A program made the translations under genes and the position numbers. Under the pieces are notes generated by a model. It searched no databases and had not been told where the DNA came from. It saw only the letters and a list, made by a program, of their open reading frames with translations. Source: Candidatus Wolframiiraptor allenii (GTDB lineage Archaea; Thermoproteota; Nitrososphaeria_A; Caldarchaeales; Wolframiiraptoraceae). Taken from it: 24,000 bases of DNA. The stretch lies in NCBI GenBank assembly GCA_023539495.1, contig JAKCEV010000012.1, positions 1-24,000 on the forward strand, written 5' to 3'. Shown piece after piece: positions 746 through 21,380 of the stretch; positions within the stretch are counted from its first letter, which is position 1, and every line of letters begins with the position of its first letter.

Positions 746-1651
746 ATGTGGAAGTTATGGCCAAGGGGTGGATCAACTTTTTATAACACTTTGAAAGGCT
801 CTTGTCTAGAAATGTCGATATTTGGCGGTAAGAAGGTTGAGGAGCTTGAGGATAGAATTGAGGAGAGGTTAAACAAATTCGAACAGAGCATCTCCGCAAG
901 GGTAGTGCCTCTTAATGAGGCGTTGAAGAGGCTTGAGTCTAGGCTTGTGGAAATCCAAGGTCTTCTCGGGACATTGGCCTCGCAACCTGAGAGCATAAGG
1001 TCGAAGCTCTCAGTCTTCCTAGAGAAGGCCGAGAAGATCTCGGAGGAGCTTGATCAGGTCAGGTTCTATGAGAGCACACTCCTCTCCATACAGGAAGGCT
1101 TGAAGGACATTATAGAGACCTTGAGCAAGGAGCGCGAGGCGATAAAGAGGGAGGTAGAGGCATTATTGAAAGAGAAGAGTGAGCTGGCCGTGATCAGACA
1201 GGAGCTGAAAAAATGGGGAAATGATCTCGACGCGAAGGAGAGGGAGCTGGCGATAAGGGAGGCTGAGCTCAGGACCCTTGAGGAGAAGAAGCTTGACCTT
1301 GAACGCAGGATCTCGGAGCTGGAGAGCAGTTACCTCAAGGGGCTCGAGGAGCTGGGGAATAGGCTAGAGAACATGTTCAAGGGCTTTCTCAGGGACTTCA
1401 AGATAAGGGAGATAAGGATGGAGCGCCTCCTCAAGAAAGAGGCCGAGCTCAGGGAGGAGTTATCCAAGCTCAGGGAGAAGGAGGAGGCAGCTGAGGAGCT
1501 CGAAAGGAAAGTTCTCCAGCTGAGAAGCGAGCTGAACATGCTCGAAGAGCGTAAGAAGAGGCTCGAGGCTGAGGTAAAGGATCTTGAGAATAAACGTGTG
1601 AGTCTCGAGAAGCTGATCGCGGAAATGAGACGCGCGGTCGTCAGCCCCTAA
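746..1651 (+). CDS. Long coiled-coil protein of unknown function (301 aa)
   Basis: The long ORF is E/K/L/R-rich with heptad-like periodicity (EELDQV..., REAELRTLEEKKLDLERRISELE). An alternative start is the ATG at 812 (MSIFGGKK...). No catalytic motif was recognised. Confidence 0.6.
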   Translation: MWKLWPRGGSTFYNTLKGSCLEMSIFGGKKVEELEDRIEERLNKFEQSISARVVPLNEALKRLESRLVEIQGLLGTLASQPESIRSKLSVFLEKAEKISEELDQVRFYESTLLSIQEGLKDIIETLSKEREAIKREVEALLKEKSELAVIRQELKKWGNDLDAKERELAIREAELRTLEEKKLDLERRISELESSYLKGLEELGNRLENMFKGFLRDFKIREIRMERLLKKEAELREELSKLREKEEAAEELERKVLQLRSELNMLEERKKRLEAEVKDLENKRVSLEKLIAEMRRAVVSP

Positions 1652-1991
1652 TATTTTCTTCAAGCCTCTGAACTCTCTCAGCGAGCTCATGGACCACGTC
1701 GGTCAGGGTCATTAGCTTGTCATTAAGATCCTCTAGCTCAACCTCTAACCTTTTCTCTAAGTTCTTCAAGCCCTCCTCAACATTCTCAAGTCTAGCTTTC
1801 AGATCGCTTAGCTCTGCCGTGCTCGCCGGCGCCATGTCTCTTATCTTCTCCTCGAGTTCTGCCACAGCCTCATCGAGTATGTTTATCGCCTTCGCCAGTC
1901 CCATCACGAAATCATATGTGGGGATCTTGCCCTTGGGCGTCTCCAAGTACCTCGGCTTCAGGACTATGCCGCCATCCTCAGCTTTGCTCAA
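1641..1991 (-). CDS. Small coiled-coil protein (116 aa), probably the last gene of the ubiquitin operon
   Basis: The ORF starts 21 nt downstream of the RING gene stop on the same strand. Its C-terminal two thirds are helical and coiled-coil-like (LSDLKARLENVEEGLKNLEKRLEVELEDLNDKL). The N-terminal roughly 40 aa are not coiled coil. Confidence 0.6.
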   Translation of the reverse strand: MSKAEDGGIVLKPRYLETPKGKIPTYDFVMGLAKAINILDEAVAELEEKIRDMAPASTAELSDLKARLENVEEGLKNLEKRLEVELEDLNDKLMTLTDVVHELAERVQRLEENIRG

Positions 1992-2012
1992 GCCAGAGCA
2001 CCACCAATAATA

Positions 2013-2246
2013 TTATCCTTTCTGTGATAAAGGCCTTTTGCAGATCGGGCATGTCCCCCTCTCATCTATCCATGGCTGAACACATCTAGCATGCATCCTG
2101 TTCCCGCAGAATGGGCACTCGAATACAGGAACACCCTCATGTATCTCCGCTGAGCAGACCGGGCATATATCCAGCTTCTTTCCCTCCTCAAACTCGAGAT
2201 CCCACTCGCCTGCCTTCTCCTCCTCCAATATTATTATCCTCCTCAT
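2013..2246 (-). CDS. Small RING-type zinc finger protein (77 aa), putative E3 ubiquitin ligase
   Basis: Eight metal ligands are present: CPVC-x12-CPFC-x4-H-x2-C-x11-CPIC. The tail HARCVQPWIDERGTCPICKRPL resembles RING-H2 domains (H-x2-C-x2-W...CPxC). The start overlaps the E1 stop by 4 nt (ATGA). Confidence 0.85.
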   Translation of the reverse strand: MRRIIILEEEKAGEWDLEFEEGKKLDICPVCSAEIHEGVPVFECPFCGNRMHARCVQPWIDERGTCPICKRPLSQKG

Positions 2247-3436
2247 GGAGTCGTCACCTCCTCCTTGTGGAATTGAACCTTCAGCTGAAAGGGCATGAAC
2301 CTTCTACTAGTGGTGATATATAATGTGTCGCCCTCCTTGACCCCCAGCTCAGAGATCCTCTTATCATCTTGGAGCCTCCACTCCCGGTAAAGTATCTCAG
2401 GATCGGGGATGCTGAACGTCTCCGCTATCCTCCTCTTAAGGTCTAGGATAGTCTCATCAGGCTTGACCGTGATCGTCAGCCCCTCTTCAACTAGATCCCC
2501 GCAGACAAAGCATTCAGAGCTCCTCTCAAGCTCCACGATCGTGAACTGCCCCGCGAGACCATCATATACTAGGAGGCCCTTGATTGGCTCGCCAAGCTTA
2601 TTTCCATGAAGTATCTTCACTATCTCCGTTGAAGCCAGCCCCGAGATCATGGCGGCGACGCTTTGAAGCGCTGGGAGCTTCGGCTTCAGCTTCTCCCTTA
2701 TCCTCCTAACAACCTCCAGCGTCTTCTTATCCAGCCTCATCAACACGCCCTCATGAGCATACTTCAGATCATAGATCGTCTTGATGTCGTGCTCGAACAG
2801 CTTCTCCGCGATCTTCTGGCTAATCTCTATTCCCGCCTGCTTCAGGTCTTGAACGAGGTCTTCGGGTCTCCTCCTCCTCAACGTGCATTCAGCGAGCTGT
2901 GTCTCCTTCGGTATCAGATCTTCTCCATGACACTCTAGGCACGCTGTTTTCTTCGGTATCACGACTTGGAGATTAGCGTAAAACCCTTCCATCGCGACAT
3001 CCACGAGAGGCTTATCCAGCTCCACAGCGAGCGAGTTAAGCCACCTCCTAACAGGCCAATTATCAAGACATGATACTATAACATCAGCTCCCTCGAAGAT
3101 TGATTCACCGAGGTTTCTAACGTCCTCGAAGTATGGCTCAACCTCTATAAGTGGATTCATCCTCCTCAGTCTATCGGCTGCAACAATGGCCTTTGGCTTG
3201 CCAATATCCTCATCTAGGAAGAGCATCTGCCTACTAAGATTTGATAGCTCGATCACGTCATTATCGACTAGGATGAGCTTTCCAACGCCCATTAACGCGA
3301 GGTTTTTCGAGATCTCGCATCCCGTTGCGCCAACCCCTACCACAACGACTCTGGCCCTGCCAAGATTCTCCTGATCCCATCCCTCGATTCTCAGCTGCCG
3401 ATCATATCGCTCAAGGCCGCCTTGTTCCTCGGTCAT
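2243..3436 (-). CDS. E1-like ubiquitin-activating enzyme (ThiF/MoeB/UBA fold) with a C-terminal beta-grasp domain
   Basis: Adenylation Rossmann motif VVVGVGATGCEISKNLALMGVGKLILVDNDVIELSNLSRQ. Two CxxC pairs (CLEC, CFVC) could form a zinc site. LAECTL resembles the eukaryotic E1 catalytic-Cys motif. The last roughly 84 aa (LTITVKPDETILDLKRRIAETF...GVKEGDTLYITT) look ubiquitin-fold. Confidence 0.9.
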   Translation of the reverse strand: MTEEQGGLERYDRQLRIEGWDQENLGRARVVVVGVGATGCEISKNLALMGVGKLILVDNDVIELSNLSRQMLFLDEDIGKPKAIVAADRLRRMNPLIEVEPYFEDVRNLGESIFEGADVIVSCLDNWPVRRWLNSLAVELDKPLVDVAMEGFYANLQVVIPKKTACLECHGEDLIPKETQLAECTLRRRRPEDLVQDLKQAGIEISQKIAEKLFEHDIKTIYDLKYAHEGVLMRLDKKTLEVVRRIREKLKPKLPALQSVAAMISGLASTEIVKILHGNKLGEPIKGLLVYDGLAGQFTIVELERSSECFVCGDLVEEGLTITVKPDETILDLKRRIAETFSIPDPEILYREWRLQDDKRISELGVKEGDTLYITTSRRFMPFQLKVQFHKEEVTTP

Positions 3437-3499
3437 CCTACCACGTGAAAGCAGCCCAAATGGCTTATATGAGTATTATTATCTCTTCGGGATTCTCAG

Positions 3500-3979
3500 C
3501 TACTCTTGAAATGCGTACTCCGGCCTAGCATAAAGCTCAATATACGCCCTAACCCTAGCCTCGAAGATATCCGGCCTATACTTCATCTCAGCAGCGGCAA
3601 ATGTATTTAGAGGATCATCAGGGTTCGGATTATTGAGTAGGTTCCTTAAGGCTTCAACGACCGAGAAAAGATGAAGTGAAGGGCTCCAGTCATTCTTGAA
3701 TATCGATTCGCAGATCCTCGCGGGAACTTCATCCGTGAAGTTTGGATGCCATATCCTCGTCCACCAGACGACATCGGGAGGAGTGTATGGGAATGTACGC
3801 GGGACGATTATCTCCACCTTAAAGAATCCACCCTCATACAGTCCCTCGCCGATTATCACTCCACGGTAATGCGTCAGCTGGTTATCCACTATGTCGAATG
3901 TAGGCTCATTCTCCCTCATCAGCTTATACTCTAGCGCCAGTCTTCTACTCCACAGAGCCTCAGGAAGCCGTGTTTTCAA
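3500..3979 (-). CDS. E2 ubiquitin-conjugating enzyme (UBC fold)
   Basis: An HPN motif and catalytic Cys sit in WHPNFTDEVPARICESIFKNDWSPSL, followed by LLNNPNPDDPLN. Both are close to the eukaryotic UBC consensus (HPN...ICLDIL...WSPAL...PNPDDPL). The apparent start codon is TTG at 3979. Confidence 0.9.
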   Translation of the reverse strand: MKTRLPEALWSRRLALEYKLMRENEPTFDIVDNQLTHYRGVIIGEGLYEGGFFKVEIIVPRTFPYTPPDVVWWTRIWHPNFTDEVPARICESIFKNDWSPSLHLFSVVEALRNLLNNPNPDDPLNTFAAAEMKYRPDIFEARVRAYIELYARPEYAFQE

Positions 3980-4035
3980 GCTATTAATTCTATGCTCGGG
4001 AGGCAGGTAATTAACTTTGAGGCCCTCAGCCTACT

Positions 4036-4272
4036 TTATCCTCCAACAGTCCTAGTTATCAGTATGAGTTTATCTCCATCTTGGACTCCTATTGATTCAA
4101 GGGTTTCCGTATCCTTAAGTGCCCTACCCCTATATGTGAGCCTCGTCGTATCTGGTGGAAGCTTCTTCATCGCGCAAACCTTAGCCCTGATAGCTCCTAT
4201 AGTCGTGGAGGGCGAGACCTCCAGCTCTATAGGATTACCCCCTCCCACAGCGGGGACGATCCTAATCTTCAT
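4036..4272 (-). CDS. Ubiquitin-like protein (78 aa) ending in GG followed by the stop codon
   Basis: MKIRIVPAVGGGNPIELEVSPSTTIGAIRAKVCAMKKLPPDTTRLTYRGRALKDTETLESIGVQDGDKLILITRTVGG aligns by eye along its length with eukaryotic ubiquitin (ITLEVEPSDTIENVKAKI...[41 protein letters not shown]). The internal ATG at 4272 is preceded by aaGGAGtt. The GG codons are followed directly by TAA. Confidence 0.9.
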   Translation of the reverse strand: MKIRIVPAVGGGNPIELEVSPSTTIGAIRAKVCAMKKLPPDTTRLTYRGRALKDTETLESIGVQDGDKLILITRTVGG

Positions 4273-4314
4273 AACTCCTTCAAACCTCCTGCCTGAGAAT
4301 AGGGCAAGCACACG

Positions 4315-4326
4315 ATATATAAATAT
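4315..4326. promoter_or_regulatory. AT-rich TATA element (ATATATAAATAT) in the divergent Ub / JAMM intergenic region
   Basis: This is the only strongly TATA-like stretch between the Ub start (4272, minus) and the JAMM gene (plus). It lies about 45-55 nt upstream of the Ub ATG, leaving room for a short leader that carries the GGAG ribosome-binding site. Confidence 0.35.
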
Positions 4327-4450
4327 GTTGTGCGAGAAGCCTCCGGAAAAATATTCTTTAAGAGTTTTCCGGTAGGAATGACAAGTGCTGAGAAGGCCTG
4401 TTCCTACCTCAAGAATGTTAAAATCCCCCTTGAATAGCATTCTCCCTCGC

Positions 4451-5122
4451 ATGAGGGTTAGAGTCTATCCGCTGGCGCTTGGTAAGATGATAAAACATGC
4501 CCTTGATGATCTTAACAGGGAGGTTGCAGGGCTTCTCGTAGGGAAATACTTGAAGAAGGGCGATGTGCTTGAGATCTGGGACACTATAACGGGCGAGCAG
4601 AAGTCAACGCCCGGCTTCGTTTACCTCGAGGAGGAGACGATTGCCGCGGCGGCGGAATGGGTTCTCAGGAATAGGCCCGGCCTATACATCGTTGGATGGT
4701 ATCATTCTCACCCGGGTTTCGACGTATTCCTCTCGGCGATAGATATCGAGACGCAGAAGCTTTATCAGAGGCTTTTTCCAAAGGCCGTGGCCCTCGTAAT
4801 AGATCCTCTAAAATACGCGAAGACGAGGAGGCTTCAGGACCTCAACTTCAAGGTCTTCAGGATAAATCAGAAGGGCGAGGTGGTGGCTATTCCAGTCTCG
4901 ATAGGAATTCAGAGGCAGAAGCTATTGGAGAGCACGCTGAAGGGGATCGAGACCATGGAGCTGAAGTATATCAGTGGAGGCAAACCCGGCAGCGAGGCTG
5001 ATCAGGAGAAATTTGAAGATCTTGAGGCGGATCTCGGCTTTCCGGTTGACAGGCTCACGGGCTCACTGAGCAACCTCTTCAAAAAGATCAGAGATAGAGT
5101 TGGCTCCCATATCCAGCCTTGA
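4451..5122 (+). CDS. JAMM/MPN+ metalloprotease, Rpn11-like deubiquitylase
   Basis: Conserved upstream Glu (NREVAGLLVG) and the JAMM motif HSHPGFDVFLSAID (H-x-H-x7-S-x2-D) at 4703-4744. The start is set at the ATG giving MRVRVYPL. The ORF is open from GTG 4385, and ATG 4415 is another alternative. The gene is divergent from the Ub-E2-E1-RING operon. Confidence 0.85.
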   Translation: MRVRVYPLALGKMIKHALDDLNREVAGLLVGKYLKKGDVLEIWDTITGEQKSTPGFVYLEEETIAAAAEWVLRNRPGLYIVGWYHSHPGFDVFLSAIDIETQKLYQRLFPKAVALVIDPLKYAKTRRLQDLNFKVFRINQKGEVVAIPVSIGIQRQKLLESTLKGIETMELKYISGGKPGSEADQEKFEDLEADLGFPVDRLTGSLSNLFKKIRDRVGSHIQP

Positions 5123-9058: not shown

Positions 9059-9206
9059 TCATCCGTGCAGGTCATTCTCATCATTGGGATTTATTCTTAC
9101 CCCTTGCTGGGGGCTCAATTATAAGGGGATTATAGGTGTTTAAAAGTCTAGCGATGGAAACTAGCCGAGGAAATAGTTTTTACTTGTGTGGATGTCTTTC
9201 GCTTGG

Positions 9207-12200
9207 ATGGAGATTAGGAGCATCTATAACTTCGCTTGTAGTAATTGTGGCGGGGAGATAACCGATGCTAGGCTGATTGAGGTTGGGGTCTGTGAGAAGT
9301 GTCTACCCGGGAAGGCCACAAGCCTCATAGAGGCGGCCGAGGGGTTGAAGAGGCTTGGGAAGCTCGAGAAGCTTAGGGATTATCTCAGGATACAGGTCGA
9401 GTATGAGGGGTTTAGGAGGTTCTTCAGGAGGGCTCTCGGCTTTGAGCCCTGGGCTCTTCAGGAGGTCTGGGCGAAGAGGATAATCTCGGGCGATAACTTC
9501 GCCATAGTTGCTCCTACGGGTGTCGGCAAGACAGTTCTAGGGCTTATCATGGCGCTATATCTCCACGCAATGAGGCGGAAGCGGTGCTATGTGATAGTCC
9601 CCAGCAGCATCTTGGCCCAGCAGCTTTACGAGAAGGCATCATTATTCGCCGAGAGGCTCGGGCTCAAGCTCGGTGAGAGGCTGCTAGTCTATCACGCCGG
9701 CCTGAACAAGGCTGATAGGGAGAAGGTCCTTGAGGAGCTTAGGCAAAATGATGGCCCAATGATCCTGATAACGACCGACAGGTTCCTCGTGGATCATGGA
9801 GACCTGCTCATGAACATAAAACCATTCGACTACGTGTTCGTGGATGATGTCGACTCCTTCCTGAAGTCGCCTAAGAACATTGATAAGGCTGTTGGGCTTC
9901 TTGGGTTAAGGCCAGAGGCCGTTGACATTGCGCTCAAGCTTATAGATATCAGGATAAGGCTCGCGAGATCCCCTTCAAAGGACCTCTCCGAGGAATATGA
10001 GCGGCTCTCAAGGGCTATTGAGGAGGAAAGGAAGAGAAGGAGGGGGATACTCGTTGTAGCCGGCGCCACGCTTAAAGGGAAGAGGACAAGGCGCATGATG
10101 ATATTCGAGGAGCTGCTCGACTTCGAGGTCGGCAGATTCCAGGAGCTCGCGAGGAACGTCGAGGACCTCTATGTGGAGCCATCGGGAGACGTGATCGAGG
10201 AAACAATCAGGCTCATCAAGAATCATGGTGGCGGATGCCTCGTCTTCGTGCCACATGCTCTTGGTAGGACATATGCTGAGAGGGTGGCCGAGGCTTTGGA
10301 GCAGGCCGGCCTAAAAGCCCACCTATACAAGAAGATGAGCCCGGACATCCTCCAAAAGTTCGCGAGCGGTGAGATAGATGTCATGGTTGGCATAGCATCC
10401 TCGAGAAGCCCGTTCACGCGGGGGATAGATCTACCATCGAGGATAAGATACGCCGTCTTCGCCGGTGTCCCAAGGAGAGAGATCAGGATTGAGAGGGTTG
10501 AATATAATCCTGGTAAGCTCCTCACGCTTATCCTCAACCTGATACCGATTCTTGATGAGCGGCTGAGAAGGGAGTCCGAGCCAATTATAGCGAAGCTGAG
10601 GAAGATAACGCCGCTTACGAGGGATGTTATGGAGAAGATAAGGGAGGCTGATGAAAAAGGTGTGAGGCTCAGCGGCTTCGAGGGCTATGCACAGGATGTG
10701 ATAGCTTCAGCGAGGGATTTCGTGAACAGGATCCTAAGCCCCCAGCTCCTCGAGAGGATCGAGAGTGATCTCGATATAACCTTGAAGCAAGCTGATGATG
10801 GCTTCACCCTAATCATACCCGACACTACCGGCTATATCCAGGCATCCGGCAGGACCTCGAGGCTCTATCCATACGGCATCATGAAAGGCGTAAGCATAGT
10901 TGTTGTTGATGATGCTAGGGCTTTCAGGGGCCTTATAACGAGGCTTAAGGCCCAGATAGAGGAGCTGGACTTCGAGCCATATGATCCGAAGAAGGCTGAG
11001 CTGATATTCGAGCAGGTTGATAGGGAGAGGAGGATTCTCGCCGAGATCCAGCGAGGCGAGGTCGAGATACGCGTAAAGGACTTGGTCAGGGCCGCGTTAA
11101 TGCTCGTTGAGTCGCCGACGAAGGCTAGGACTATCGCCTACCTCTTCGGGAGGCCGTTCAGGAGAAGGATCGGGCCGCTGACTGTCTATGAGGCGGCGAT
11201 AGGCGGCGTGATAGTCGGCGTCGCCGCGACGCAGGGCCATATAACAGACCTGATCACAGGCTCTGAGAGGGGGCTTCATGGGGTTGAGAGGATTGATGGC
11301 AGGTTTATCCCGGTTTACGGCGTCATAAAGAGATGCTATAACTGCGGTGAGCAGTGGGCTGATGGAAGGCCATGCCCGTCATGCGGCTCAGATGATATAT
11401 TCGACAAGATCGAGATAATCGAGGCGATTAGGAGGCTTGCGCAGCAGTATAACGAGGTCTACTTGGCGACGGATCCGGATGCCGAAGGAGAGAAGATATC
11501 ATATGATCTCATGTGTCTTATTAAACCATTTAACCCGAACATCTATAGGCTCGAGTTCCATGAGGTTACAAGAAGGGCCCTACTCTCAGCTCTCCAAGCC
11601 AAGAGGGATGTTAACATTAACCTCGTGGAGGCGCAACTCTTAAGACGAATCGAGGACAGGTGGATAGGGTTCGAGCTTAGCAGGAAGCTCTGGGAACGGT
11701 TTGGGAGCAAGTGGCTCTCGGCCGGAAGGGTTCAGACACCCGTGCTTGGATGGATAATAGAGAGGACAAACGAGTATAAGAGGAAGAAGGCACTAGTACG
11801 TATAAGGCTTAGCGAGAATCTCTACATAGACCTCCTCGAGCCCAAGAACGCTGATGAGATCCTGAGGGAGTGGGAAGAGGGGAGGCTCAGGGTGATCGTC
11901 AGGGTTCTCGGCGAGGAGGAGGCTACCGTTAACCCGCCCCCACCATATACCACGGACTCCCTCCTAAGGGATGCCTCCGCCTACCTGAAGCTCTCGGCGG
12001 CTAATGCGATGAGGGTGGCTCAGGACCTGTTCGAGGCGGGTCTCATAACATATCACAGGACCGATGCGACAACGGTCTCGCAGGTCGGCATAGGGATAGC
12101 GAGGGAGTATCTGAGCAAGATTGATCCAAGCCTCTTCATGCCTAGGACGTATAGAGTTGAGGGTGCTCATGAGTGTATCAGGCCTGTTAAGCCTCTTGAC

Positions 12201-12836
12201 GCTGAGAAGCTCCGATACTATATCAGGATAGGCCTCATCACAGTGCCTGCAGCCAAGCTCACCGAGACACATTACAGGATGTACGACCTGATATTCAGGA
12301 GGTTTATCGCGAGCCAGTGTAGGCCGGCCAAAATAGTCACGCAGAGGGTCTCCGTCGAGGTCCTAGGCAATATTGTCGAGCAGGCTAGGGATGTGGCAAT
12401 ACTGGATAAGGGGTTCCTTGAGTTCTACCCGACAATCAGGGTTATGGATAGGGTTGAGGGCGGTGAGTATCTTGTAAGCGGCGTAGAGGTTAGGAAGATT
12501 CCATCCGCCTGGCTCCTGACCGAGGGCGATGTCGTCGCGCTAATGAAGGAGAGGGGGATAGGCCGGCCAAGCACATACAGCAAGATAATAGAGACTCTTC
12601 TGGAGAGGGGATATGTTATAGAGAGGGCTGGAAGGCTCATAGCGACCAGCAAGGGCATGAGGATATACCAGTATCTGACTGAGAGGTTTGGAGATTATGT
12701 CTCGGAGGAGCTGACGAGAAGGCTCGAGGCCGACATGGACCGCGTCGAGAACGGCGAGGCTGATTACCAGAAGATACTTGAGGAGCTCTATCAGGAGGTC
12801 ATGGCGATCAGGGCAGCTCCAGCGATAAGCAGGTAG
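9207..12836 (+). CDS. rgy: Reverse gyrase (helicase-like domain fused to a type IA topoisomerase)
   Basis: N-terminal Zn finger CSNCGG...CEKC. Walker A APTGVGKT and a DEAD-like VDDVD. TOPRIM motifs VESPTKARTIA and YLATDPDAEGEKIS. A second Zn finger CYNCGE...CPSCGS. Active-site tyrosine context LITYHRTD. The ORF is open from GTG 9186; ATG 9192 or 9207 are the likelier starts. Confidence 0.95.
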   Translation: MEIRSIYNFACSNCGGEITDARLIEVGVCEKCLPGKATSLIEAAEGLKRLGKLEKLRDYLRIQVEYEGFRRFFRRALGFEPWALQEVWAKRIISGDNFAIVAPTGVGKTVLGLIMALYLHAMRRKRCYVIVPSSILAQQLYEKASLFAERLGLKLGERLLVYHAGLNKADREKVLEELRQNDGPMILITTDRFLVDHGDLLMNIKPFDYVFVDDVDSFLKSPKNIDKAVGLLGLRPEAVDIALKLIDIRIRLARSPSKDLSEEYERLSRAIEEERKRRRGILVVAGATLKGKRTRRMMIFEELLDFEVGRFQELARNVEDLYVEPSGDVIEETIRLIKNHGGGCLVFVPHALGRTYAERVAEALEQAGLKAHLYKKMSPDILQKFASGEIDVMVGIASSRSPFTRGIDLPSRIRYAVFAGVPRREIRIERVEYNPGKLLTLILNLIPILDERLRRESEPIIAKLRKITPLTRDVMEKIREADEKGVRLSGFEGYAQDVIASARDFVNRILSPQLLERIESDLDITLKQADDGFTLIIPDTTGYIQASGRTSRLYPYGIMKGVSIVVVDDARAFRGLITRLKAQIEELDFEPYDPKKAELIFEQVDRERRILAEIQRGEVEIRVKDLVRAALMLVESPTKARTIAYLFGRPFRRRIGPLTVYEAAIGGVIVGVAATQGHITDLITGSERGLHGVERIDGRFIPVYGVIKRCYNCGEQWADGRPCPSCGSDDIFDKIEIIEAIRRLAQQYNEVYLATDPDAEGEKISYDLMCLIKPFNPNIYRLEFHEVTRRALLSALQAKRDVNINLVEAQLLRRIEDRWIGFELSRKLWERFGSKWLSAGRVQTPVLGWIIERTNEYKRKKALVRIRLSENLYIDLLEPKNADEILREWEEGRLRVIVRVLGEEEATVNPPPPYTTDSLLRDASAYLKLSAANAMRVAQDLFEAGLITYHRTDATTVSQVGIGIAREYLSKIDPSLFMPRTYRVEGAHECIRPVKPLDAEKLRYYIRIGLITVPAAKLTETHYRMYDLIFRRFIASQCRPAKIVTQRVSVEVLGNIVEQARDVAILDKGFLEFYPTIRVMDRVEGGEYLVSGVEVRKIPSAWLLTEGDVVALMKERGIGRPSTYSKIIETLLERGYVIERAGRLIATSKGMRIYQYLTERFGDYVSEELTRRLEADMDRVENGEADYQKILEELYQEVMAIRAAPAISR

Positions 12837-14092: not shown

Positions 14093-15193
14093 TTGCAGGC
14101 GGCCTCTTTCTCGGGCGTGTCGAAAGGCTTATCCAAGCTTCTGTCCATGCTCATAGGACTAGTAGTTGTTATAGTGGCGGGCATCGCCATCACCAACTCC
14201 TTTCACCAGTATGTTTACCCAATCTCTATTAGGCCCGCCGTGATGATAGAATATGTCGACTTAATTGAGGCTGGCAATAATGACATGCTCATACTGAACC
14301 TAAAGAATATCGGCAATGTTCCCGTTGACGTTCAACATGTTGTAGTTGATGGTGTTGGAGATGTTGATTGTAGGGTTGCTGGAAGCGGTTCTCCGGGGAC
14401 TACTTTCTCGATAGTATGCTCTGGCAATATCCTAAGCGGTTATGATGACTCAATCTCGGGGATAGTGAGGATAGGGTTCATAGATGGAAGCAGCATGGCG
14501 CTGATCTTCAAGGCCGGGAGAGGACAGGCGGTAGCAATTGGGACAATAACCGGAACATTAACGACGACCATTGAGACGCAGGATTTTGATATCTATTTTG
14601 ATCCTAGTGATGTGGCTGCGAAGCCCGGCCTGTCAAGATCATCTACACTAAGGATAATTTCCGAGAACTATGAGGGTGAAGTGACGCTGAATGTTGAAAG
14701 CTGTCCAAGCGACTGGGTATGCTACCTTAGCCGTAATAACGTGTATCTTCCAAGGAACGGTGATGCCAGCGTAACATTGACCTTCTCCGTACCAAGCATC
14801 GTCGAGGCGAGAAACTATGTTGTAATCGTCTCAGCGCAGGATTCCTCCAGCCGCATCAAGACAACTTCCCTAACAGTCATGGTGCAGGACTTCAAGATAG
14901 ACGTCGTAGAGGACAGTATTAGTGGAAAGGTGGGTAGCGATGCTCAAGTAACAGTAAAGATAATCCCCCTGAATGGTTATAGGGGTAACATAAACCTCTC
15001 CTATCAAGATGGTGTGGGAAAGGGGGAATTTAACCCGAATCCAGTAAGTGTTAGTGGTCAAGACAAAGAGGCGGTCTTCACGTTTAAAATAATTGGGCCG
15101 CCAGGCAAGAAAACGGTCACCGTGACCGGAGTAGATGAGGATGGCATAATGCGTTCAGACGATTTTAAAGTACATGCTGAAGCTGGCCACTAA
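14093..15193 (+). CDS. Type IV pilin-like protein (class III signal peptide) with two C-terminal Ig-like repeats
   Basis: SKGLSKLLSMLIGLVVVIVAGIAI resembles a prepilin peptidase site followed by a hydrophobic helix. The N-terminal roughly 135 aa are paralogous to the 15260-15685 product. Two tandem roughly 100-aa repeats start with DFDIYF (14582) and DFKIDV (14888). The start is uncertain: TTG 14093 or GTG 14114. Confidence 0.7.
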   Translation: MQAASFSGVSKGLSKLLSMLIGLVVVIVAGIAITNSFHQYVYPISIRPAVMIEYVDLIEAGNNDMLILNLKNIGNVPVDVQHVVVDGVGDVDCRVAGSGSPGTTFSIVCSGNILSGYDDSISGIVRIGFIDGSSMALIFKAGRGQAVAIGTITGTLTTTIETQDFDIYFDPSDVAAKPGLSRSSTLRIISENYEGEVTLNVESCPSDWVCYLSRNNVYLPRNGDASVTLTFSVPSIVEARNYVVIVSAQDSSSRIKTTSLTVMVQDFKIDVVEDSISGKVGSDAQVTVKIIPLNGYRGNINLSYQDGVGKGEFNPNPVSVSGQDKEAVFTFKIIGPPGKKTVTVTGVDEDGIMRSDDFKVHAEAGH

Positions 15194-15862: not shown

Positions 15863-16231
15863 TTGGTCGAGGAGTATCTTGAGCCAAACCTGGTCAAGAA
15901 GGCCTTCAAGGATGCCATGAGATCCATCTTTGGCGAGAACGGCTCGCGGATCCTCGAGCTCCATCTCAGAAGATTTCTCGGGAAGGATCCATATGAGGCC
16001 ATCTACGAGGATCCGAGGCTCTTCTGCGATGGCCTGAGAGCATTCTTCGGCCCCGGGGCTAGAGGCCTCCTCATAGTCCTGGCCAAGACCCTGATAAAGG
16101 AGAGCGGGATACAGGGCCTGACGCCAAGCCAGATCATCGAGATCCTAGAGAGCGGCGACCAGGAGCTTAAGACCCACTTCTTCGCAATCCTCTGCTCCTC
16201 CCAACGCAGAGTTGGGGGTGGCGTCAGGTGA
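15863..16231 (+). CDS. Small helical protein, paralog A of an uncharacterised family (122 aa)
   Basis: Shares G...LE..L...PY....DP.L....L...FG......L.....LI..SG with the 18869-19300 product (for example DPYEAIYEDPRLFCDGLRAFFG versus SPYKLLLRDPQLYYNALTSIFG). TTG start. The stop overlaps the KaiC-like GTG start by 4 nt. Confidence 0.6.
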   Translation: MVEEYLEPNLVKKAFKDAMRSIFGENGSRILELHLRRFLGKDPYEAIYEDPRLFCDGLRAFFGPGARGLLIVLAKTLIKESGIQGLTPSQIIEILESGDQELKTHFFAILCSSQRRVGGGVR

Positions 16232-17643
16232 ATCCAACCGGGATACCCGGCGTAGATGAGCTGATAGGAGGCCTGCCAAGAGGAGAGCTCGTGATAGTGG
16301 CCGGTGGCCCGGGAACAGGGAAAACAATGTTCTCGGCGGGATTCCTATACTGGGGCGCAGTGAAATACGGCGAGAAGGGCCTATACGTCTCGCTCGCCGA
16401 GGATCACGATACATTCATCAGGAACATGAAGCGGGTCAGCTATGACTTCAGGGAACTGGAGGATCGCGGCCTCTTCCACTTCATCGACGCATTAACAGTT
16501 ATGGAGACCGGAATAGCAGAGCTCCTCGAGACGATAATAGAGGAGGCATCATCATTTGGGGCCCAGAGGCTGGTCATAGACTCCCTCTCAGCCCTCGCCC
16601 AAGGGATGAGGGAGCCGAGAGAGCTCAGAGTCTTCCTCCACACGCTCCTATCAAGGATAATGAGAGGCCTAGGATGCACGACAATACTAATCGAGGAGGT
16701 CCCAGTCGGCGAGACAAGAATAGGGTATGGCTTCGAGGAATTCGTAGCCTCAGCAGTCATAGTACTTGAGAAAGACATGATAGATAACAGGTTCATCAGG
16801 AGGATGAGGATCGAGAAACTGAGAGGTCTCCCAATAAGAAGTAAAATGGCGTGTTACACGCTTGGAGCGGGGTTCATAGCCTTCCCACCATACAAGACGC
16901 CGGTACTTGAGAGTCCGAGGACTCCAGATCCTATACCAGACCCACCCGGTAGATACTCTAGCGGGCTAAAGGATTTGGATGAGGCTTTAGGAGGGTATCC
17001 GAAGGGGTCTACAATCCTCTTGGAAATAGACGCTATGGTAACCAGGGATCAATACAGGGTGCTAATTTGGCCGCATTCGGCCAACTTCCTTCGAAACAAA
17101 AGACCGATAATAACGGTCCCTGGGATAGGGAGTAGTCCGAAGGATCTGGAAGCATTCTATGAGAGTTATGCCCTCCCAGAGGATGAACGAAAGCTCGCAA
17201 GGCACTTCCTAGCAGTAGAGGCTGTTAACCGGCATTCTCCAGCAAACATAATCGCATATGATCCAAAAGATGGTGCGGTCTCATTAATTGAGAAAATTGA
17301 GTCTACTGCTGAGGAACTGATGAAGACTGTTGGAAGCCCGCCCTTGATTGTGATAAGCATGGACTCGCTTGAATTCAACTACGAGCTCGAGGATGTGTTG
17401 AAGATGGTCTCGAGGATTGCGGCTTGGACTAGGAGAAATAATGCTTTAAGTCTCTTAGCAGATAAATCCTCATATCCGGAGCTCACCAGAAAAATATCCT
17501 CAATAGCCTCCATCCACCTGAAACTCACGAGAAGGCATGGGTGCCTCCTTCTCTACGGCATCAAGCCCATGATACACCTACATGCCGTAAAAATAGAAAC
17601 CGGGAAGGGGTATTATGAGACAAGGCTCATCCCAATCACTTAG
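16228..17643 (+). CDS. KaiC/RadA-like two-domain ATPase with a degenerate second domain
   Basis: Domain 1 has GIPGVDELIGGLPRGELVIVAGGPGTGKT (Walker A) and RLVIDSLSAL (Walker B). Domain 2, from about 16948, repeats the fold entry SSGLKDLDEALGGYPKGSTILLEIDAM but has no GxxGxGKT P-loop. Confidence 0.85.
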   Translation: MNPTGIPGVDELIGGLPRGELVIVAGGPGTGKTMFSAGFLYWGAVKYGEKGLYVSLAEDHDTFIRNMKRVSYDFRELEDRGLFHFIDALTVMETGIAELLETIIEEASSFGAQRLVIDSLSALAQGMREPRELRVFLHTLLSRIMRGLGCTTILIEEVPVGETRIGYGFEEFVASAVIVLEKDMIDNRFIRRMRIEKLRGLPIRSKMACYTLGAGFIAFPPYKTPVLESPRTPDPIPDPPGRYSSGLKDLDEALGGYPKGSTILLEIDAMVTRDQYRVLIWPHSANFLRNKRPIITVPGIGSSPKDLEAFYESYALPEDERKLARHFLAVEAVNRHSPANIIAYDPKDGAVSLIEKIESTAEELMKTVGSPPLIVISMDSLEFNYELEDVLKMVSRIAAWTRRNNALSLLADKSSYPELTRKISSIASIHLKLTRRHGCLLLYGIKPMIHLHAVKIETGKGYYETRLIPIT

Positions 17644-18868: not shown

Positions 18869-19300
18869 ATGTCCGAGGAAGACAGGTACGCCTCCATCCT
18901 CAGGTCCGTGCTCGAGGAGCTTCTTGGAAGTAGCGCGTTAAAGGTTCTTGAATACCAGCTCTCAAAGAGCTATCCCGAGACAAGTCCCTATAAGCTGCTA
19001 TTAAGAGACCCTCAGCTATATTATAACGCGTTAACCTCAATCTTCGGGAACGAGGGCAGTCTCATCTTCCTAAAGCTGATCCTCAAACACCTCATAACAA
19101 GATCAGGCACCACCACAATAGACCCGGACACGCTCGCAAGATCACTCATACGCGGAGAAAAAGATGCCATAAACACGCTCATACAAACACTGGAGAAAGT
19201 AGCAAATTTTCGAGACGAAGCGAATCTCAAGATAATCGAGACGCCTCAAGTTTTAAAGGAAGCTGAGAAATGGAAGGGAATGGGGGTTGGAGGAAACTAG
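18869..19300 (+). CDS. Small helical protein, paralog B of the same uncharacterised family (143 aa)
   Basis: Similarity by eye to the 15863-16231 product across roughly 90 aa. Its 3' end overlaps the next gene's TTG start by 14 nt. Confidence 0.6.
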   Translation: MSEEDRYASILRSVLEELLGSSALKVLEYQLSKSYPETSPYKLLLRDPQLYYNALTSIFGNEGSLIFLKLILKHLITRSGTTTIDPDTLARSLIRGEKDAINTLIQTLEKVANFRDEANLKIIETPQVLKEAEKWKGMGVGGN

Positions 19301-20336
19301 AAAAGTAGTAGAAGCATTAATGAAAGTTGGTCCTAGATTTTCCGATATATCAAGAGCCACCGGTATCCCAGTCTCAACAGTAAGATACATTATACTAAAA
19401 AGACTACCAAAACTAGGTCTTTCCATTAGGCCCTCAATAAATTATGGAGCATTAGGCCTGCAAAGATATTTAGTGACGTTTCGGAGCAGCTATCCCACAT
19501 ACTACATTTCTAACATACTAGACCTACTTGGAGAATACGCGTACCTAGATTACTACACTTATCTAATGACGGAGAAAAAGTTTTTCGCGATCTTCGCTAT
19601 ACCGCCAAGTTACGAAAAGGACTTTCTAGATTTTCTAGACTTACTTGAATCGATGATTTTGATCAAGGAGGTGGAAACATGTAAACTCACATATATGAGA
19701 CCTCTTCCATTCATGGTTGAATTCTTCGATTTTTCGAGAGGGGTATGGATTCAGGATTGGATTAGCATGAGAAAGACTAGAAATATCCCAGAGACGCCTG
19801 AATATCCTGCCCCTCATCCCAAGATAGATAAAGTGGATCTTATCTTAATAGCAGAACTTCAAAAAGGTATAGCTCCAATAAAGTACAATAGTTTAGCTCA
19901 AAAATTCAATTTAACCCGCCAAACAATTAGTAAGCATTATAAGCACGTGAAGAATTTGATAAATTTGTTTACGATCTTTTGGGCTCCTCACATGAACCCT
20001 CAGCTCCTACTGCTTCCATTAATGGTTAAAGTGGAAGCTAGGAAAGATTTCAGGGAAATACTGCTTAGCATACCATTTACATATACTGAATTCAGAAGCG
20101 AAGGAGGGGATTATTTTGCGATGTTAATGATGCCAAACGTTGGTTCATACAATACTTTAAAATTCCTAACAAGTTCACTAGATGTGATTAGCATAGATTT
20201 TCAAGATATGGAATATAGTGGAAAATTTACAATTCAACATAATTTATTTAAAAACGGACTATGGATTAACGTCTTCGACGAAGTTGCAAGGAAGCTGGTT
20301 GTTTTGATAAAATCTCGCAGCGGACAATTACGATAA
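19287..20336 (+). CDS. Putative transcription regulator with two tandem HTH-plus-effector (Lrp/AsnC-like) modules
   Basis: Module 1: RFSDISRATGIPVSTVRYIILKRL followed by INYGALGLQRYLVTF. Module 2: DLILIAELQKGIAPIKYNSLAQKFNLTRQTISKHYKHV followed by a similar alpha/beta-looking segment. The start is TTG 19287 (an alternative is ATG 19320). The region is visibly AT-rich. Confidence 0.6.
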   Translation: MEETRKVVEALMKVGPRFSDISRATGIPVSTVRYIILKRLPKLGLSIRPSINYGALGLQRYLVTFRSSYPTYYISNILDLLGEYAYLDYYTYLMTEKKFFAIFAIPPSYEKDFLDFLDLLESMILIKEVETCKLTYMRPLPFMVEFFDFSRGVWIQDWISMRKTRNIPETPEYPAPHPKIDKVDLILIAELQKGIAPIKYNSLAQKFNLTRQTISKHYKHVKNLINLFTIFWAPHMNPQLLLLPLMVKVEARKDFREILLSIPFTYTEFRSEGGDYFAMLMMPNVGSYNTLKFLTSSLDVISIDFQDMEYSGKFTIQHNLFKNGLWINVFDEVARKLVVLIKSRSGQLR

Positions 20337-20383
20337 AAATAAAAATTTGGATGAATTTTCCGTCTTAGAGGGCGCTCCTAGGT

Positions 20384-20521
20384 TTAGAATGGAACTTTCG
20401 AAACCTTCTCCGCCGGAACGCCTGTTAGAGCTGCTACTGCTATTATTGCGGCTTCAATTGCTATTATGATCAGCATCTCTTTGGAGATTCCTGCTTTCAG
20501 GGCGACATCCTCAAACTTCAT
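20384..20521 (-). CDS. Candidate small hydrophobic protein (45 aa), absent from the ORF track
   Basis: Manual translation gives MKFEDVALKAGISKEMLIIIAIEAAIIAVAALTGVPAEKVSKVPF followed by stop. TTAATTAA lies 23-30 nt upstream of the ATG, which is leaderless geometry. A T-rich tract (ATTTTTATTTT) follows the stop on that strand. There is no homology evidence. Confidence 0.25.
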   Translation of the reverse strand: MKFEDVALKAGISKEMLIIIAIEAAIIAVAALTGVPAEKVSKVPF

Positions 20522-20693
20522 GCCGTATAATAGGTTCGGGGGGTTAATTAACATTTTCACAAAATTTTCATAATTGCTTGCATTTTTGTTAAGATCTTAG
20601 AGTAAAACTTATATATTATGTACCCAAAATCTGGGCTCCTATGCGTGAGATTGTATATTTTAGGCAAATTGATTTTAAGATGTTATTGGTTGC

Positions 20694-21374
20694 ATGGTTT
20701 TGATGCGGTTGAGTATTGGCTTCATCGTGCTGATTCTTCTTACGCTGGTCTTGGCCGTTTTCCTGATCTACCGGCTGGGGTTTGTGTTGTTTTCTTCTAG
20801 GGCCGACTCGGTTTATCCGAGGCCTGTTGTTGAGCTTTTTCTTGAGCATGGTGATGTGCTTATTCCTGTTCGGGGTGACGTATTGTTGAAGGAGCCTCTT
20901 CCCAGCGACCTTAAGCTTATTGTTAGGCTGAGTAACAATAGTAGTGAGCCTAGTTTGAAAGGTGAGTTTGCGGCTGGTGTCCTCTTGATGCTGGAGGGCG
21001 TGAGGGTGAAGGATATTGAGTTGCGCGGATTTGTGGGCGCGATTGGGGTAGGCGAGGATGGCAGCGTAGTCTCGCCCGTGAACGCCAGCATCGTAGAGTT
21101 ATTCGCTAGCAAGCTCGATCCATGGTGTTCCATAGAAGCAGAGCTCACCCTGCATAGGGGGAATGAGTCGGGTTGTTTCCAACTTGCTTATAGGGGTTGG
21201 ATAATGGATGAAGATGATCGTGTCTTGGAGCCTGTCAGCGGCTCTGAGGAGCCCTATATTGCCAGGTATCCTCCTGAGAGCTATCCGGATAATCCACCTG
21301 ATTCCAGATGGGCTGGGCGTGATTTTATGAAGTATGCTGTTTACCGGGCGGAGGTCTGTTATCTGGGAGGCTGA
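20694..21374 (+). CDS. Membrane-anchored protein of unknown function (226 aa)
   Basis: An N-terminal hydrophobic helix (LSIGFIVLILLTLVLAVFLIYRLGFVLF) is followed by a soluble domain with no motif I recognise. A TATA-like TTATATATTA lies at about 20609-20618. Confidence 0.55.
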   Translation: MVLMRLSIGFIVLILLTLVLAVFLIYRLGFVLFSSRADSVYPRPVVELFLEHGDVLIPVRGDVLLKEPLPSDLKLIVRLSNNSSEPSLKGEFAAGVLLMLEGVRVKDIELRGFVGAIGVGEDGSVVSPVNASIVELFASKLDPWCSIEAELTLHRGNESGCFQLAYRGWIMDEDDRVLEPVSGSEEPYIARYPPESYPDNPPDSRWAGRDFMKYAVYRAEVCYLGG

Positions 21375-21380
21375 GCCCGC

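Follow-up and report, generated by a model that had tools for sequence, protein, structure and literature searches.

The first 24,000 nucleotides (nt) of contig JAKCEV010000012.1 from Candidatus Wolframiiraptor allenii (assembly GCA_023539495.1; hereafter the window) contain a gene cluster for ubiquitin (Ub), an E1, an E2, a RING-type E3 and an Rpn11-like JAMM protease. In Ca. Wolframiiraptor allenii, this locus represents the ordinary ortholog of the eukaryote-like ubiquitylation module known from Caldiarchaeum, i.e. a known type of system and no discovery. Very probably it would encode a working E1–E2–RING ubiquitylation cascade with an Rpn11-type deubiquitylase, as judged from experiments on the catalytic steps of the Candidatus Caldiarchaeum subterraneum proteins. 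What is established here, as described below, is the content of the gene cluster, the motifs and folds of its products, their orthology and the purifying selection. Wolframiiraptor belongs to the Wolframiiraptoraceae, a family of the Caldarchaeales (syn. Aigarchaeota) (PMC9246946).

The list of open reading frames (ORFs) and the sequence itself reveal a tight minus-strand gene string at 1641–4272 with the order Ub–E2–E1–RING followed by a gene for a 116-residue protein. The Ub gene (4036–4272, 78 residues) is separated by a 56-nt gap from the E2 gene (3500–3979, 159 residues, TTG start), which in turn lies 63 nt from the E1 gene (2243–3436, 397 residues). The E1 gene and the RING gene (srfp, the E3; 2013–2246, 77 residues) share an ATGA overlap at 2243–2246, which reads ...ACT CCA TGA / ATG AGG AGG, and the gene for the 116-residue coiled-coil protein (1641–1991), also with a TTG start, lies 21 nt after the RING stop codon. 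The gene for the Rpn11-like JAMM protease (4451–5122, plus strand) is divergent from the Ub gene, with a 178-bp intergenic region (4273–4450) between them, and a second coiled-coil gene (746–1651, plus strand) is convergent with the gene string. A preliminary description of this DNA had given the gene coordinates, strands, minus-strand order and ATGA overlap correctly. It had also counted five genes at 1641–5122; all five are present, but the interval holds six ORFs, the one for the 116-residue protein having been omitted. The functions it assigned all withstood comparison with profiles, solved structures and folds.

The Ub, E2, E1, RING and 116-residue proteins have exact matches in GenBank, all from Ca. 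Wolframiiraptor allenii metagenome-assembled genomes (MAGs; MCL7393622-6 and MCL7386699-703). The first three are named there as ubiquitin family protein, ubiquitin-conjugating enzyme E2 and ThiF family adenylyltransferase, while the RING and coiled-coil proteins are listed as hypothetical.

Components of the cascade

Proteins were assigned to families with Pfam profiles, using the curated gathering score of each family as threshold, and all five catalytic and modifier products score above it. The Ub protein matches PF00240 with 54.8 bits (cut-off 25.4) and also Rad60-SLD, and the Pfam scan found no ThiS or MoaD family match for it. The Pfam check proposed beforehand thus places the 78-residue protein in PF00240 rather than in ThiS/MoaD, and the 159-residue protein in UQ_con. 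Structures of C. subterraneum Ub (6fj7, 2mqj, 6fnn (6fnn_C) and 5zew) are matched over the full length at E values of about 1e-40. Alignment with eukaryotic ubiquitin over the whole length, as had been claimed, is also found: the match to human ubiquitin (E about 2e-9) is ungapped with an offset of 2 residues, and 28 of 76 positions (∼37%) are identical. The protein ends in ...RTVGG with the TAA stop codon directly after Gly77-Gly78; it has no propeptide, and its C-terminal Gly-Gly is free for activation. Since Ub lacks a propeptide, the JAMM protease would be needed here only for deconjugation and not for Ub maturation. Thr46 lies at the centre of the hydrophobic patch, and the chain has Lys at positions 2, 31, 36, 37, 53 and 68 and Arg at positions 4 and 48. 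Covalent attachment of Ub to lysine has been demonstrated for the C. subterraneum ortholog (PMC5654768).

Some other gene-calling pipelines give lengths of 134 residues for Ub and 139 residues for E2. The 78-residue start of Ub is supported by a candidate promoter box, TTTATATA, at 4316–4323 (minus strand; 43 nt upstream of the Ub ATG), by GGAGG/GGAG ahead of this ATG and by the homologous N-terminus that ubiquitin from C. subterraneum (CsUb) has. The E2 protein matches UQ_con (PF00179) with 100.7 bits (cut-off 27), its residues 14–146 lying on profile positions 2–139. Because the match begins at profile position 2 with residue 14, helix α1 needs the TTG start, which supports the length of 159 residues. 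UBE2K is matched at E 4e-25, and >270 E2 chains in the PDB are matched at E < 0.01. Both the HPN motif and the catalytic Cys noted in the preliminary description are present, as His78-Pro79-Asn80 and as Cys90 in the active-site Cys column of UBE2K. The surfaces of loop 4 and loop 7 are represented by Pro64/Tyr65 and by Trp98-Ser-Pro100-Ser101, respectively.

The E1 protein had been credited with an adenylation domain, a CT-type Cys motif and a ubiquitin-fold domain, and all three are borne out. It matches ThiF with 214.1 bits (cut-off 28.1), and residues 320–376 match PF00240 with 31.7 bits (cut-off 25.4), which locates a C-terminal ubiquitin-fold domain at about 318–390. UBA3 and UBA1 are matched at about 1e-37 with both CxxC pairs aligned, and Cys184 (in 'AECTL') falls under the catalytic Cys of UBA3 ('PMCTI') and UBA1 ('PICTL'). 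The recognizable residues comprise the GxGxxG motif at 34–39 (Gly34, Gly36 and Gly39), Arg13/Gln14, Asn66/Arg69, Lys82, Asp125 and the zinc-binding pairs Cys166/Cys169 and Cys309/Cys312; the ATP-binding, zinc and catalytic residues, including Cys184, are invariant among 30 homologs. An AlphaFold (AF2) model built from this 30-sequence alignment (predicted local distance difference test score (pLDDT) 84.8; predicted template-modelling score (pTM) 0.77) has a Rossmann core, a helical insertion at 177–250 that carries Cys184, and a C-terminal beta-grasp with the corresponding secondary-structure pattern at 320–389. In a Foldseek search with this model, UBA3 chains come first and align over the whole length (3gzn_B, E 8e-28, TM 0.70, about 430 aligned columns), SAE2 comes next and ThiF appears later with its core only, so that UBA3 fits better than ThiF or MoeB. 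The model thus indicates that the E1 is a eukaryote-type, UBA3-like single chain.

The RING finger had likewise been recognized correctly: the 77-residue protein matches zf-RING_2 (PF13639) with 37.2 bits (cut-off 27.3) and the RING-H2 domains of RLIM, EL5 and RNF13 at E values of 3e-9 to 6e-9. Its eight zinc ligands, in cross-brace spacing (Cys28, Cys31, Cys44, Cys47, His52, Cys55, Cys66 and Cys69; C-X2-C-X12-C-X2-C-X4-H-X2-C-X10-C-X2-C), do not vary among 20 orthologs that range from Wolframiiraptor to Caldarchaeum, and neither do Trp59, Pro67 and Arg71. Val30, Trp59 and Pro67 lie on the predicted E2 face, and Lys70 occupies the linchpin position. Ahead of the RING domain, residues 9–20 form an acidic segment with invariant Gly13 and Trp15 (EEKAGEWDLEFEE). 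This G13-x-W15 segment is kept out to Caldarchaeum (AGFWNP), appears to be undiscussed in the literature on the system and could be a binding motif.

The JAMM ORF (4385–5122) matches PF01398 (JAB) with 66.4 bits (cut-off 22.5). It also matches the C. subterraneum Rpn11 (CsRpn11; 6fju) at E 3e-68, with 57% of 197 aligned residues identical; for the Rpn11 proteins of yeast and human the E value is about 3e-18. The motif E...HxHx7Sx2D is formed by Glu24, His85-x-His87, Ser95 and Asp98 (numbering of the 223-residue form). Family and divergent orientation are therefore as first described, but the start is not: the ORF is open from GTG 4385 (245 residues), while ATG 4451 (223 residues) is, from sequence comparison, the most likely start. 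Gene calls on contigs that are 98.7–99% identical give 223 residues, and the crystallised CsRpn11 begins at MRVRIYPL, which is homologous to the Met of the 223-residue form. Queried from GTG 4385, the 245-residue form had no exact match in a collection of 15 billion proteins. Within the divergent intergenic region, TTAAAAT at 4418–4424 (plus strand) lies 26 nt ahead of ATG 4451; together with the box at 4316–4323, it is a putative promoter according to the general spacing of archaeal TATA boxes.

Conservation and relation to known systems

We then compared the locus with related loci (numbered L001–L022) fetched from contigs of relatives, using tblastn for the proteins of the window. A scan of genome contigs with a single E1 query reached only Wolframiiraptoraceae-like and Pelearchaeum genomes; Caldarchaeum loci were obtained via homologous proteins and the contigs encoding them. 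A search for E1 homologs returned 205 cluster representatives at E ≤ 1e-20. The order of a divergent JAMM gene followed by Ub–E2–E1–RING recurs in the Wolframiiraptor and Caldarchaeum loci (including L011/L012, Caldarchaeum sp.). The core Ub–E2–E1–RING is also kept in the Pelearchaeum loci, where no JAMM gene was found in the upstream flank. The outer flanks vary: on the upstream side, L21e and housekeeping genes are present here, whereas Caldarchaeum has thiolase genes and L013 has archaellum genes. What persists across lineages is the stretch from Ub to a second RING gene, followed by a class-II aminoacyl-tRNA synthetase gene. The ubiquitin block was seen on many contigs that come independently from different metagenomes. 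Its genes stay in the same order as the identity of the proteins drops in step with lineage divergence, so the block appears to be vertically inherited within the order.

Compared with W. gerlachensis (L009), Caldarchaeum sp. (L011) and a 'C. subterraneum' MAG (L013), respectively, identity is 100%, 82% and 88% for Ub, 98%, 67% and 66% for E2, and 94%, 52% and 58% for E1; the 82–88% range for Ub relates to Caldarchaeum/Caldiarchaeum MAG loci and not to the PDB chains of CsUb. The RING protein is 91% and 31% identical in L009 and L011, the L013 contig ending before the RING gene, and the JAMM protein 93% and 54%, the JAMM gene being not adjacent in L013. The W. gerlachensis locus (JAJPCT020000017.1) contains the same block, with 92% identity for the 116-residue protein and 91% for the 301-residue product of the convergent gene, and its Ub also ends at the Gly-Gly; it differs in a longer Ub–JAMM intergenic region and in the absence of a 743-bp AT-rich insertion described below. 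Codon differences between the two Wolframiiraptor species are 21 synonymous and 0 non-synonymous for Ub, and 43 synonymous and 2 non-synonymous for E2. Both genes are under strong purifying selection.

A C-terminal tail of Ub is also absent in L002, L003, L005 and L009, while tails of 6–13 residues are present in L001, L007/8, L011 and L013 (13 residues in L001, 7 in Pelearchaeum, and 6 and 8 in two Caldarchaeum-type loci). The propeptide is thus a variable trait and does not define the family. In L001 (4770–5045), the 78 Ub residues are 100% identical to those here and are followed, after the Gly-Gly, by the 13-residue tail (ILKNSTAFPLSSR) that results from a stop-codon indel. Such a tail on an identical Ub indicates that the propeptide is gained and lost even among close relatives. 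The 91-residue members of the Ub cluster may be C-terminally extended forms of this kind rather than products of alternative N-terminal starts.

The C. subterraneum operon (CSUB_C1473–C1477; Rpn11-like, Ubl, E2-like, E1-like and srfp) was described in 2011 as five partially overlapping genes by Nunoura et al. (PMC3082918) and reconstituted in 2017 by Hennell James et al. (PMC5654768); the structures of its Ub and Rpn11 were solved in 2018 by Fuchs et al. (PMC6043591). The locus studied here has the same genes in the same order and orientation, the divergent Rpn11 gene, an unannotated fifth coding sequence after srfp, a second RING E3 nearby and a mature Ub of 78 residues ending in TVGG. All residues mutated in the reconstitution (PMC5654768) have conserved counterparts here: Pro67/Tyr68 and Pro103/Ser104 of the E2 correspond to Pro64/Tyr65 and Pro100/Ser101; Ile30, Trp58 and Arg69 of srfp, which are required in the C. 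subterraneum assays (PMC5654768), correspond to Val30, Trp59 and Lys70; and Thr46 of Ub is Thr46 in both. The chain-linkage lysines Lys53 and Lys68 are retained. The RING ligand pattern is shared with CSUB_C1477 (PMC3082918), with an X12 spacer here and X11 there. There are also differences. CsUb is an 87-residue precursor from which Rpn11 cuts nine C-terminal residues before use by the E1 (PMC5654768, PMC6043591), whereas Ub is already mature here. The JAMM protein has a longer C-terminal tail, with 223 residues compared to 202 in both CsRpn11 (Fuchs truncation delta149–202, PMC6043591) and the L011 gene call. Near-identity to the Caldiarchaeum operon had been raised as a caveat on novelty; the two are orthologous, but with E1 at 52–58% and RING at 31% they are not nearly identical.

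The rarity first ascribed to such operons was overstated. A Ub system was found in all six Aigarchaeota bins studied (PMC6053391) and, with the 205 E1 cluster representatives, is general in the Aigarchaeota/Caldarchaeales, and the proteins of this locus are already in GenBank. The Wolframiiraptor paper (PMC9246946) makes no mention of ubiquitin, so this particular operon, though annotated, appears to be undescribed in the literature.

The likeness to the eukaryotic NEDD8 and ubiquitin cascades (UBA3, UBE2K, RLIM, RNF38 and Rpn11) extends to folds, catalytic residues, the ubiquitin-fold domain of the E1, the helix-1, loop-4 and loop-7 surfaces of the E2, the RING Trp, the linchpin Lys/Arg and the JAMM motif. 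By contrast, the E1 is here a single chain without the APPBP1/UBA1-type pseudo-adenylation half, the RING protein is a minimal 77-residue form with Cys in place of His4, and the genes form an operon. The Rpn11-like protein is free-standing, outside a proteasome lid, and its C. subterraneum counterpart needs no partner for activity (PMC6043591).

Taken together, these features point to the following route. Ub would be translated already mature, ending at Gly77-Gly78, and its Gly78 would be adenylated with Mg-ATP by the UBA3-like E1, which would then carry Ub as a thioester on Cys184. The ubiquitin-fold domain of the E1 would recruit the E2 via helix α1, and Ub would pass to Cys90. The 77-residue RING protein would dock on loops 4 and 7 of the E2 via Val30, Trp59 and Pro67, while its linchpin Lys70 would hold the E2~Ub conjugate closed, leading to discharge of Ub to lysines of substrates and of Ub itself. 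Finally, the Rpn11-like JAMM protease would take Ub off again.

Several points weigh against this picture or temper it. Every catalytic step is transferred to these proteins from C. subterraneum. CsUb Lys4, the third mapped linkage site, and Lys48 are both Arg in the Ub studied here. The small RING protein is only 31% identical to its Caldarchaeum homolog by tblastn, and it is without the canonical RING-H2 His4, with Asn49 in that column of the RLIM alignment. Presumably the extra Cys44, two residues before Cys47, substitutes for His4; Asn49 and Cys44 together make this protein a C4HC3-spaced RING variant and no textbook RING-H2, and the Cys44 pattern agrees with the 'C3B' cysteine of C. subterraneum srfp noted by Hennell James et al. 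(PMC5654768). The E1 is presumably a homodimer, since no APPBP1-like partner is encoded, and the 26-nt distance from TTAAAAT to ATG 4451 suggests a leaderless JAMM mRNA; both points are indirect. To our knowledge, no archaeal system of this type has a known native substrate or a known connection with the proteasome.

We weighed this cascade against three other explanations. Both the SAMP/UbaA/JAMM1 systems and the bacterial Bil and CBASS Cap2/Cap3 systems resemble it in that each combines three elements: a modifier of the beta-grasp fold ending in Gly, an adenylation domain of E1 type and a protease of the JAB/JAMM family; they differ in that they are without a separate canonical UBC E2 and RING E3 and that their E1s are without the UBA3-type architecture. 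If the locus were a prokaryote-type sulphur-carrier or SAMP/Urm1-like system (ThiS/MoaD with MoeB/ThiF), it would serve thiamine, molybdopterin or tRNA thiolation and the JAMM protein would be a desampylase. The E1 adenylation domain does match MoeB, ThiF and SAMP-E1 models (1e-31 to 1e-40), and the JAMM protein has a weak desampylase match, but the former scores are all far under the curated cut-offs and the latter reaches 21.9 bits against a cut-off of 130. The modifier belongs to PF00240 and Rad60-SLD rather than to ThiS/MoaD, the same operon also encodes a canonical E2 of the UBC type along with a RING finger, the E1 has the catalytic-Cys insertion and the C-terminal ubiquitin-fold domain and is fitted better by UBA3 than by ThiF, and CsRpn11 leaves the C. 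subterraneum SAMPs unprocessed (PMC6043591). This domain content effectively refutes such a system, which we regard as highly improbable. An antiviral conjugation system of the Bil or CBASS Cap2/Cap3 type, modifying phage or effector proteins, is marginally less improbable, though still very unlikely. The Ubl, E2, E1 and JAB content resembles those operons, the adenylation domain matches the PADLOC 'E1-E2' (Cap2-like) models up to 7e-25 and the JAMM protein matches the PADLOC JAB model at 3e-9. However, these matches span generic adenylation and JAB cores only and are below the cut-offs, and Ub, E2 and RING have no PADLOC match. Around the operon there was no sign of a cyclase, an effector or a mobile element, the neighbours being L21e, L10e, Rpb4, KsgA and Cgi121, and throughout the order the block appears to have been conserved by vertical descent.

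The components are far closer to eukaryotic than to typical prokaryotic proteins, as would be expected from eukaryotic contamination, from a recent horizontal transfer from a eukaryote or from a functionless, decaying relic. Yet the genes are operonic, with an overlapping stop and start codon and TTG starts, and the genes on either side are archaeal; many independent contigs, from different metagenomes, carry this block, and purifying selection is strong. Synteny and selection refute these possibilities, to which we give practically no weight, and for C. subterraneum the case was argued in the same way by Nunoura et al. (PMC3082918). A Caldiarchaeum-type ubiquitylation module is therefore retained as the best explanation of the locus.

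As an annotation this locus matters little: publications already cover this type of system, with its biochemistry and two of its structures, and GenBank contains these proteins. It does provide a second thermostable, 50–90%-diverged copy of the minimal E1/E2/RING/Ub/Rpn11 set, and a Ub that needs no processing makes reconstitution simpler. Among these genomes, that of W. gerlachensis is the only one tied to a laboratory enrichment culture (PMC9246946). Its Ub is identical and its E1 and E2 are 94–98% identical to those here, and native substrates could in principle be sought in that culture. We know of no archaeal ubiquitin system for which native substrates have ever been identified.

Coiled-coil and membrane RING neighbours

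The 116-residue protein contains an invariant motif, E17-T18-P19-x-G21, across its orthologs. Its AF2 model (pLDDT 84.8) consists of two strands (15–18 and 21–24) and a helix of about 90 residues (26–115), with the ETPxG motif on the predicted N-terminal beta-hairpin (15–24). No Pfam, NCBIfam or PADLOC family is matched above cut-off, with coiled-coil noise only, and a fold search against the PDB gave nothing below E = 7. A profile search with the family returned 67 cluster representatives of 89–122 residues, all at E ≤ 2.4e-14, with nothing weaker appearing, and the named matches come from Caldarchaeum and Nitrososphaerota archaea. The family is apparently discrete and restricted to the Caldarchaeales. 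Names given to its members at JGI (prefoldin subunit 5, FlaC, Zn-ribbon protein and chromosome segregation ATPase) were rejected as coiled-coil noise; the protein has no Cys. Wherever a locus extends over this position (L001–L009, L011/12, L014–18, L021 and L022), the gene comes immediately after that for the RING protein, and it matches the position of the unannotated fifth coding sequence in Nunoura's C. subterraneum cluster (PMC3082918). The sole exception is the most divergent homolog, which lies at L020 4193–5312 beside an IS1595-family transposase fragment and away from any Ub operon.

The 3' end of the convergent coiled-coil gene (746–1651) overlaps the 116-residue gene by 11 nt. Its ORF has 301 residues and had no exact match in the protein look-up; other gene calls start at Met23 (position 812) and give 279 residues. 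The gene has the same place and orientation in L001–L007, L009, L011, L014–L018 and L021, and its product is 33–35% identical to the Caldarchaeum and Pelearchaeum counterparts. Pfam, NCBIfam and PADLOC returned coiled-coil noise only for this protein.

The second RING gene of the block lies outside the window and encodes 228–240 residues (L014 10063–10785, L009 8756–9478 and L011 8669–9358). On contig L014, which is 98.7% identical, it is a 240-residue gene that would start 63 nt beyond the left edge of the window. A lack of this E3 had first been suspected because positions 1–716 of the window have no homolog in W. gerlachensis; the L014 contig led us to reject this. By eye, the protein sequence shows four hydrophobic stretches; the RING at its C-terminus repeats the ligand spacing seen in the small RING. 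The protein is a putative membrane-anchored paralog with a layout reminiscent of eukaryotic membrane RING ligases, and the 'second E3' of C. subterraneum mentioned by Fuchs et al. (PMC6043591) is this gene.

The three genes (for the 116-residue protein, the ∼280–300-residue coiled-coil protein and the membrane RING) are held in the block from Wolframiiraptor to Caldarchaeum while the outer flanks change. This falls short of proof but suggests, as a tentative and rather doubtful possibility, that the functional module is larger than the five published components and includes these three. The coiled-coil proteins could be a scaffold or adaptor pair tying the soluble cascade to the membrane E3, or they could be native substrates; in vitro, the C. 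subterraneum cascade ubiquitylated lysines within coiled-coil regions of Rad50. Of the whole locus, only this conserved but uncharacterised part, with its coiled-coil genes and membrane RING, could add something to the picture of pre-eukaryotic ubiquitin signalling.

Insertion and other genes of the window

Positions 1–719 of the window are part of an inserted 743-bp AT-rich segment (G+C content 0.39) that runs about 24 nt past the left edge. A full copy lies at L014 9277–10019, with the convergent coiled-coil gene on one side and that for the membrane RING on the other. W. gerlachensis and other relatives lack the segment and have a gap of about 60 nt in its place. On both sides the segment is bordered by a direct repeat of 8 bp, TTATAAGG, which overlaps a TATA-like box. 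No Rfam match was found at the gathering score or at E ≤ 1, and no repeats were found within positions 1–900 of the window. The copy in L014 has no terminal inverted repeat and no ORF >95 residues, and no second copy occurs in the window or the loci; the single match in JGI metagenomes is the same locus. The segment may represent an old insertion, or else an RNA gene that has gone unrecognised.

A reverse gyrase gene with zf_Rg, DEAD, Toprim and Topoisom_bac domains is indeed present at 9186–12836. It had been described as next to the ubiquitin genes, but it starts about 4 kb away, with genes for L21e, Rpb4/RpoF, DUF655, KsgA, L10e, RNase H and Cgi121 between it and the JAMM gene. Reverse gyrase also occurs in thermophiles (PMC3082918), and the term 'hyperthermophilic' used for the host is slightly strong, as the genus was described as thermophilic with labelling microcosms at 75 °C (PMC9246946).

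Farther along the window, the stretch at 19000–21400 has a low G+C content (0.40) and may be a small island; the ORFs at 18869–19300, 19287–20336 (weak helix-turn-helix match only) and 20694–21374 belong to no Pfam family. It is followed by a gene (21381–23774, minus strand) whose product is a Rad50-like SMC ATPase carrying a zinc hook. For the ORF at 14093–15193, the match to DUF499 is confined to the C-terminal part of the profile (positions 802–893 of 1024), and the ORF may be a fragment, and the ORF at 16228–17643 encodes a KaiC-like ATPase with a match to the GvpD basic region.

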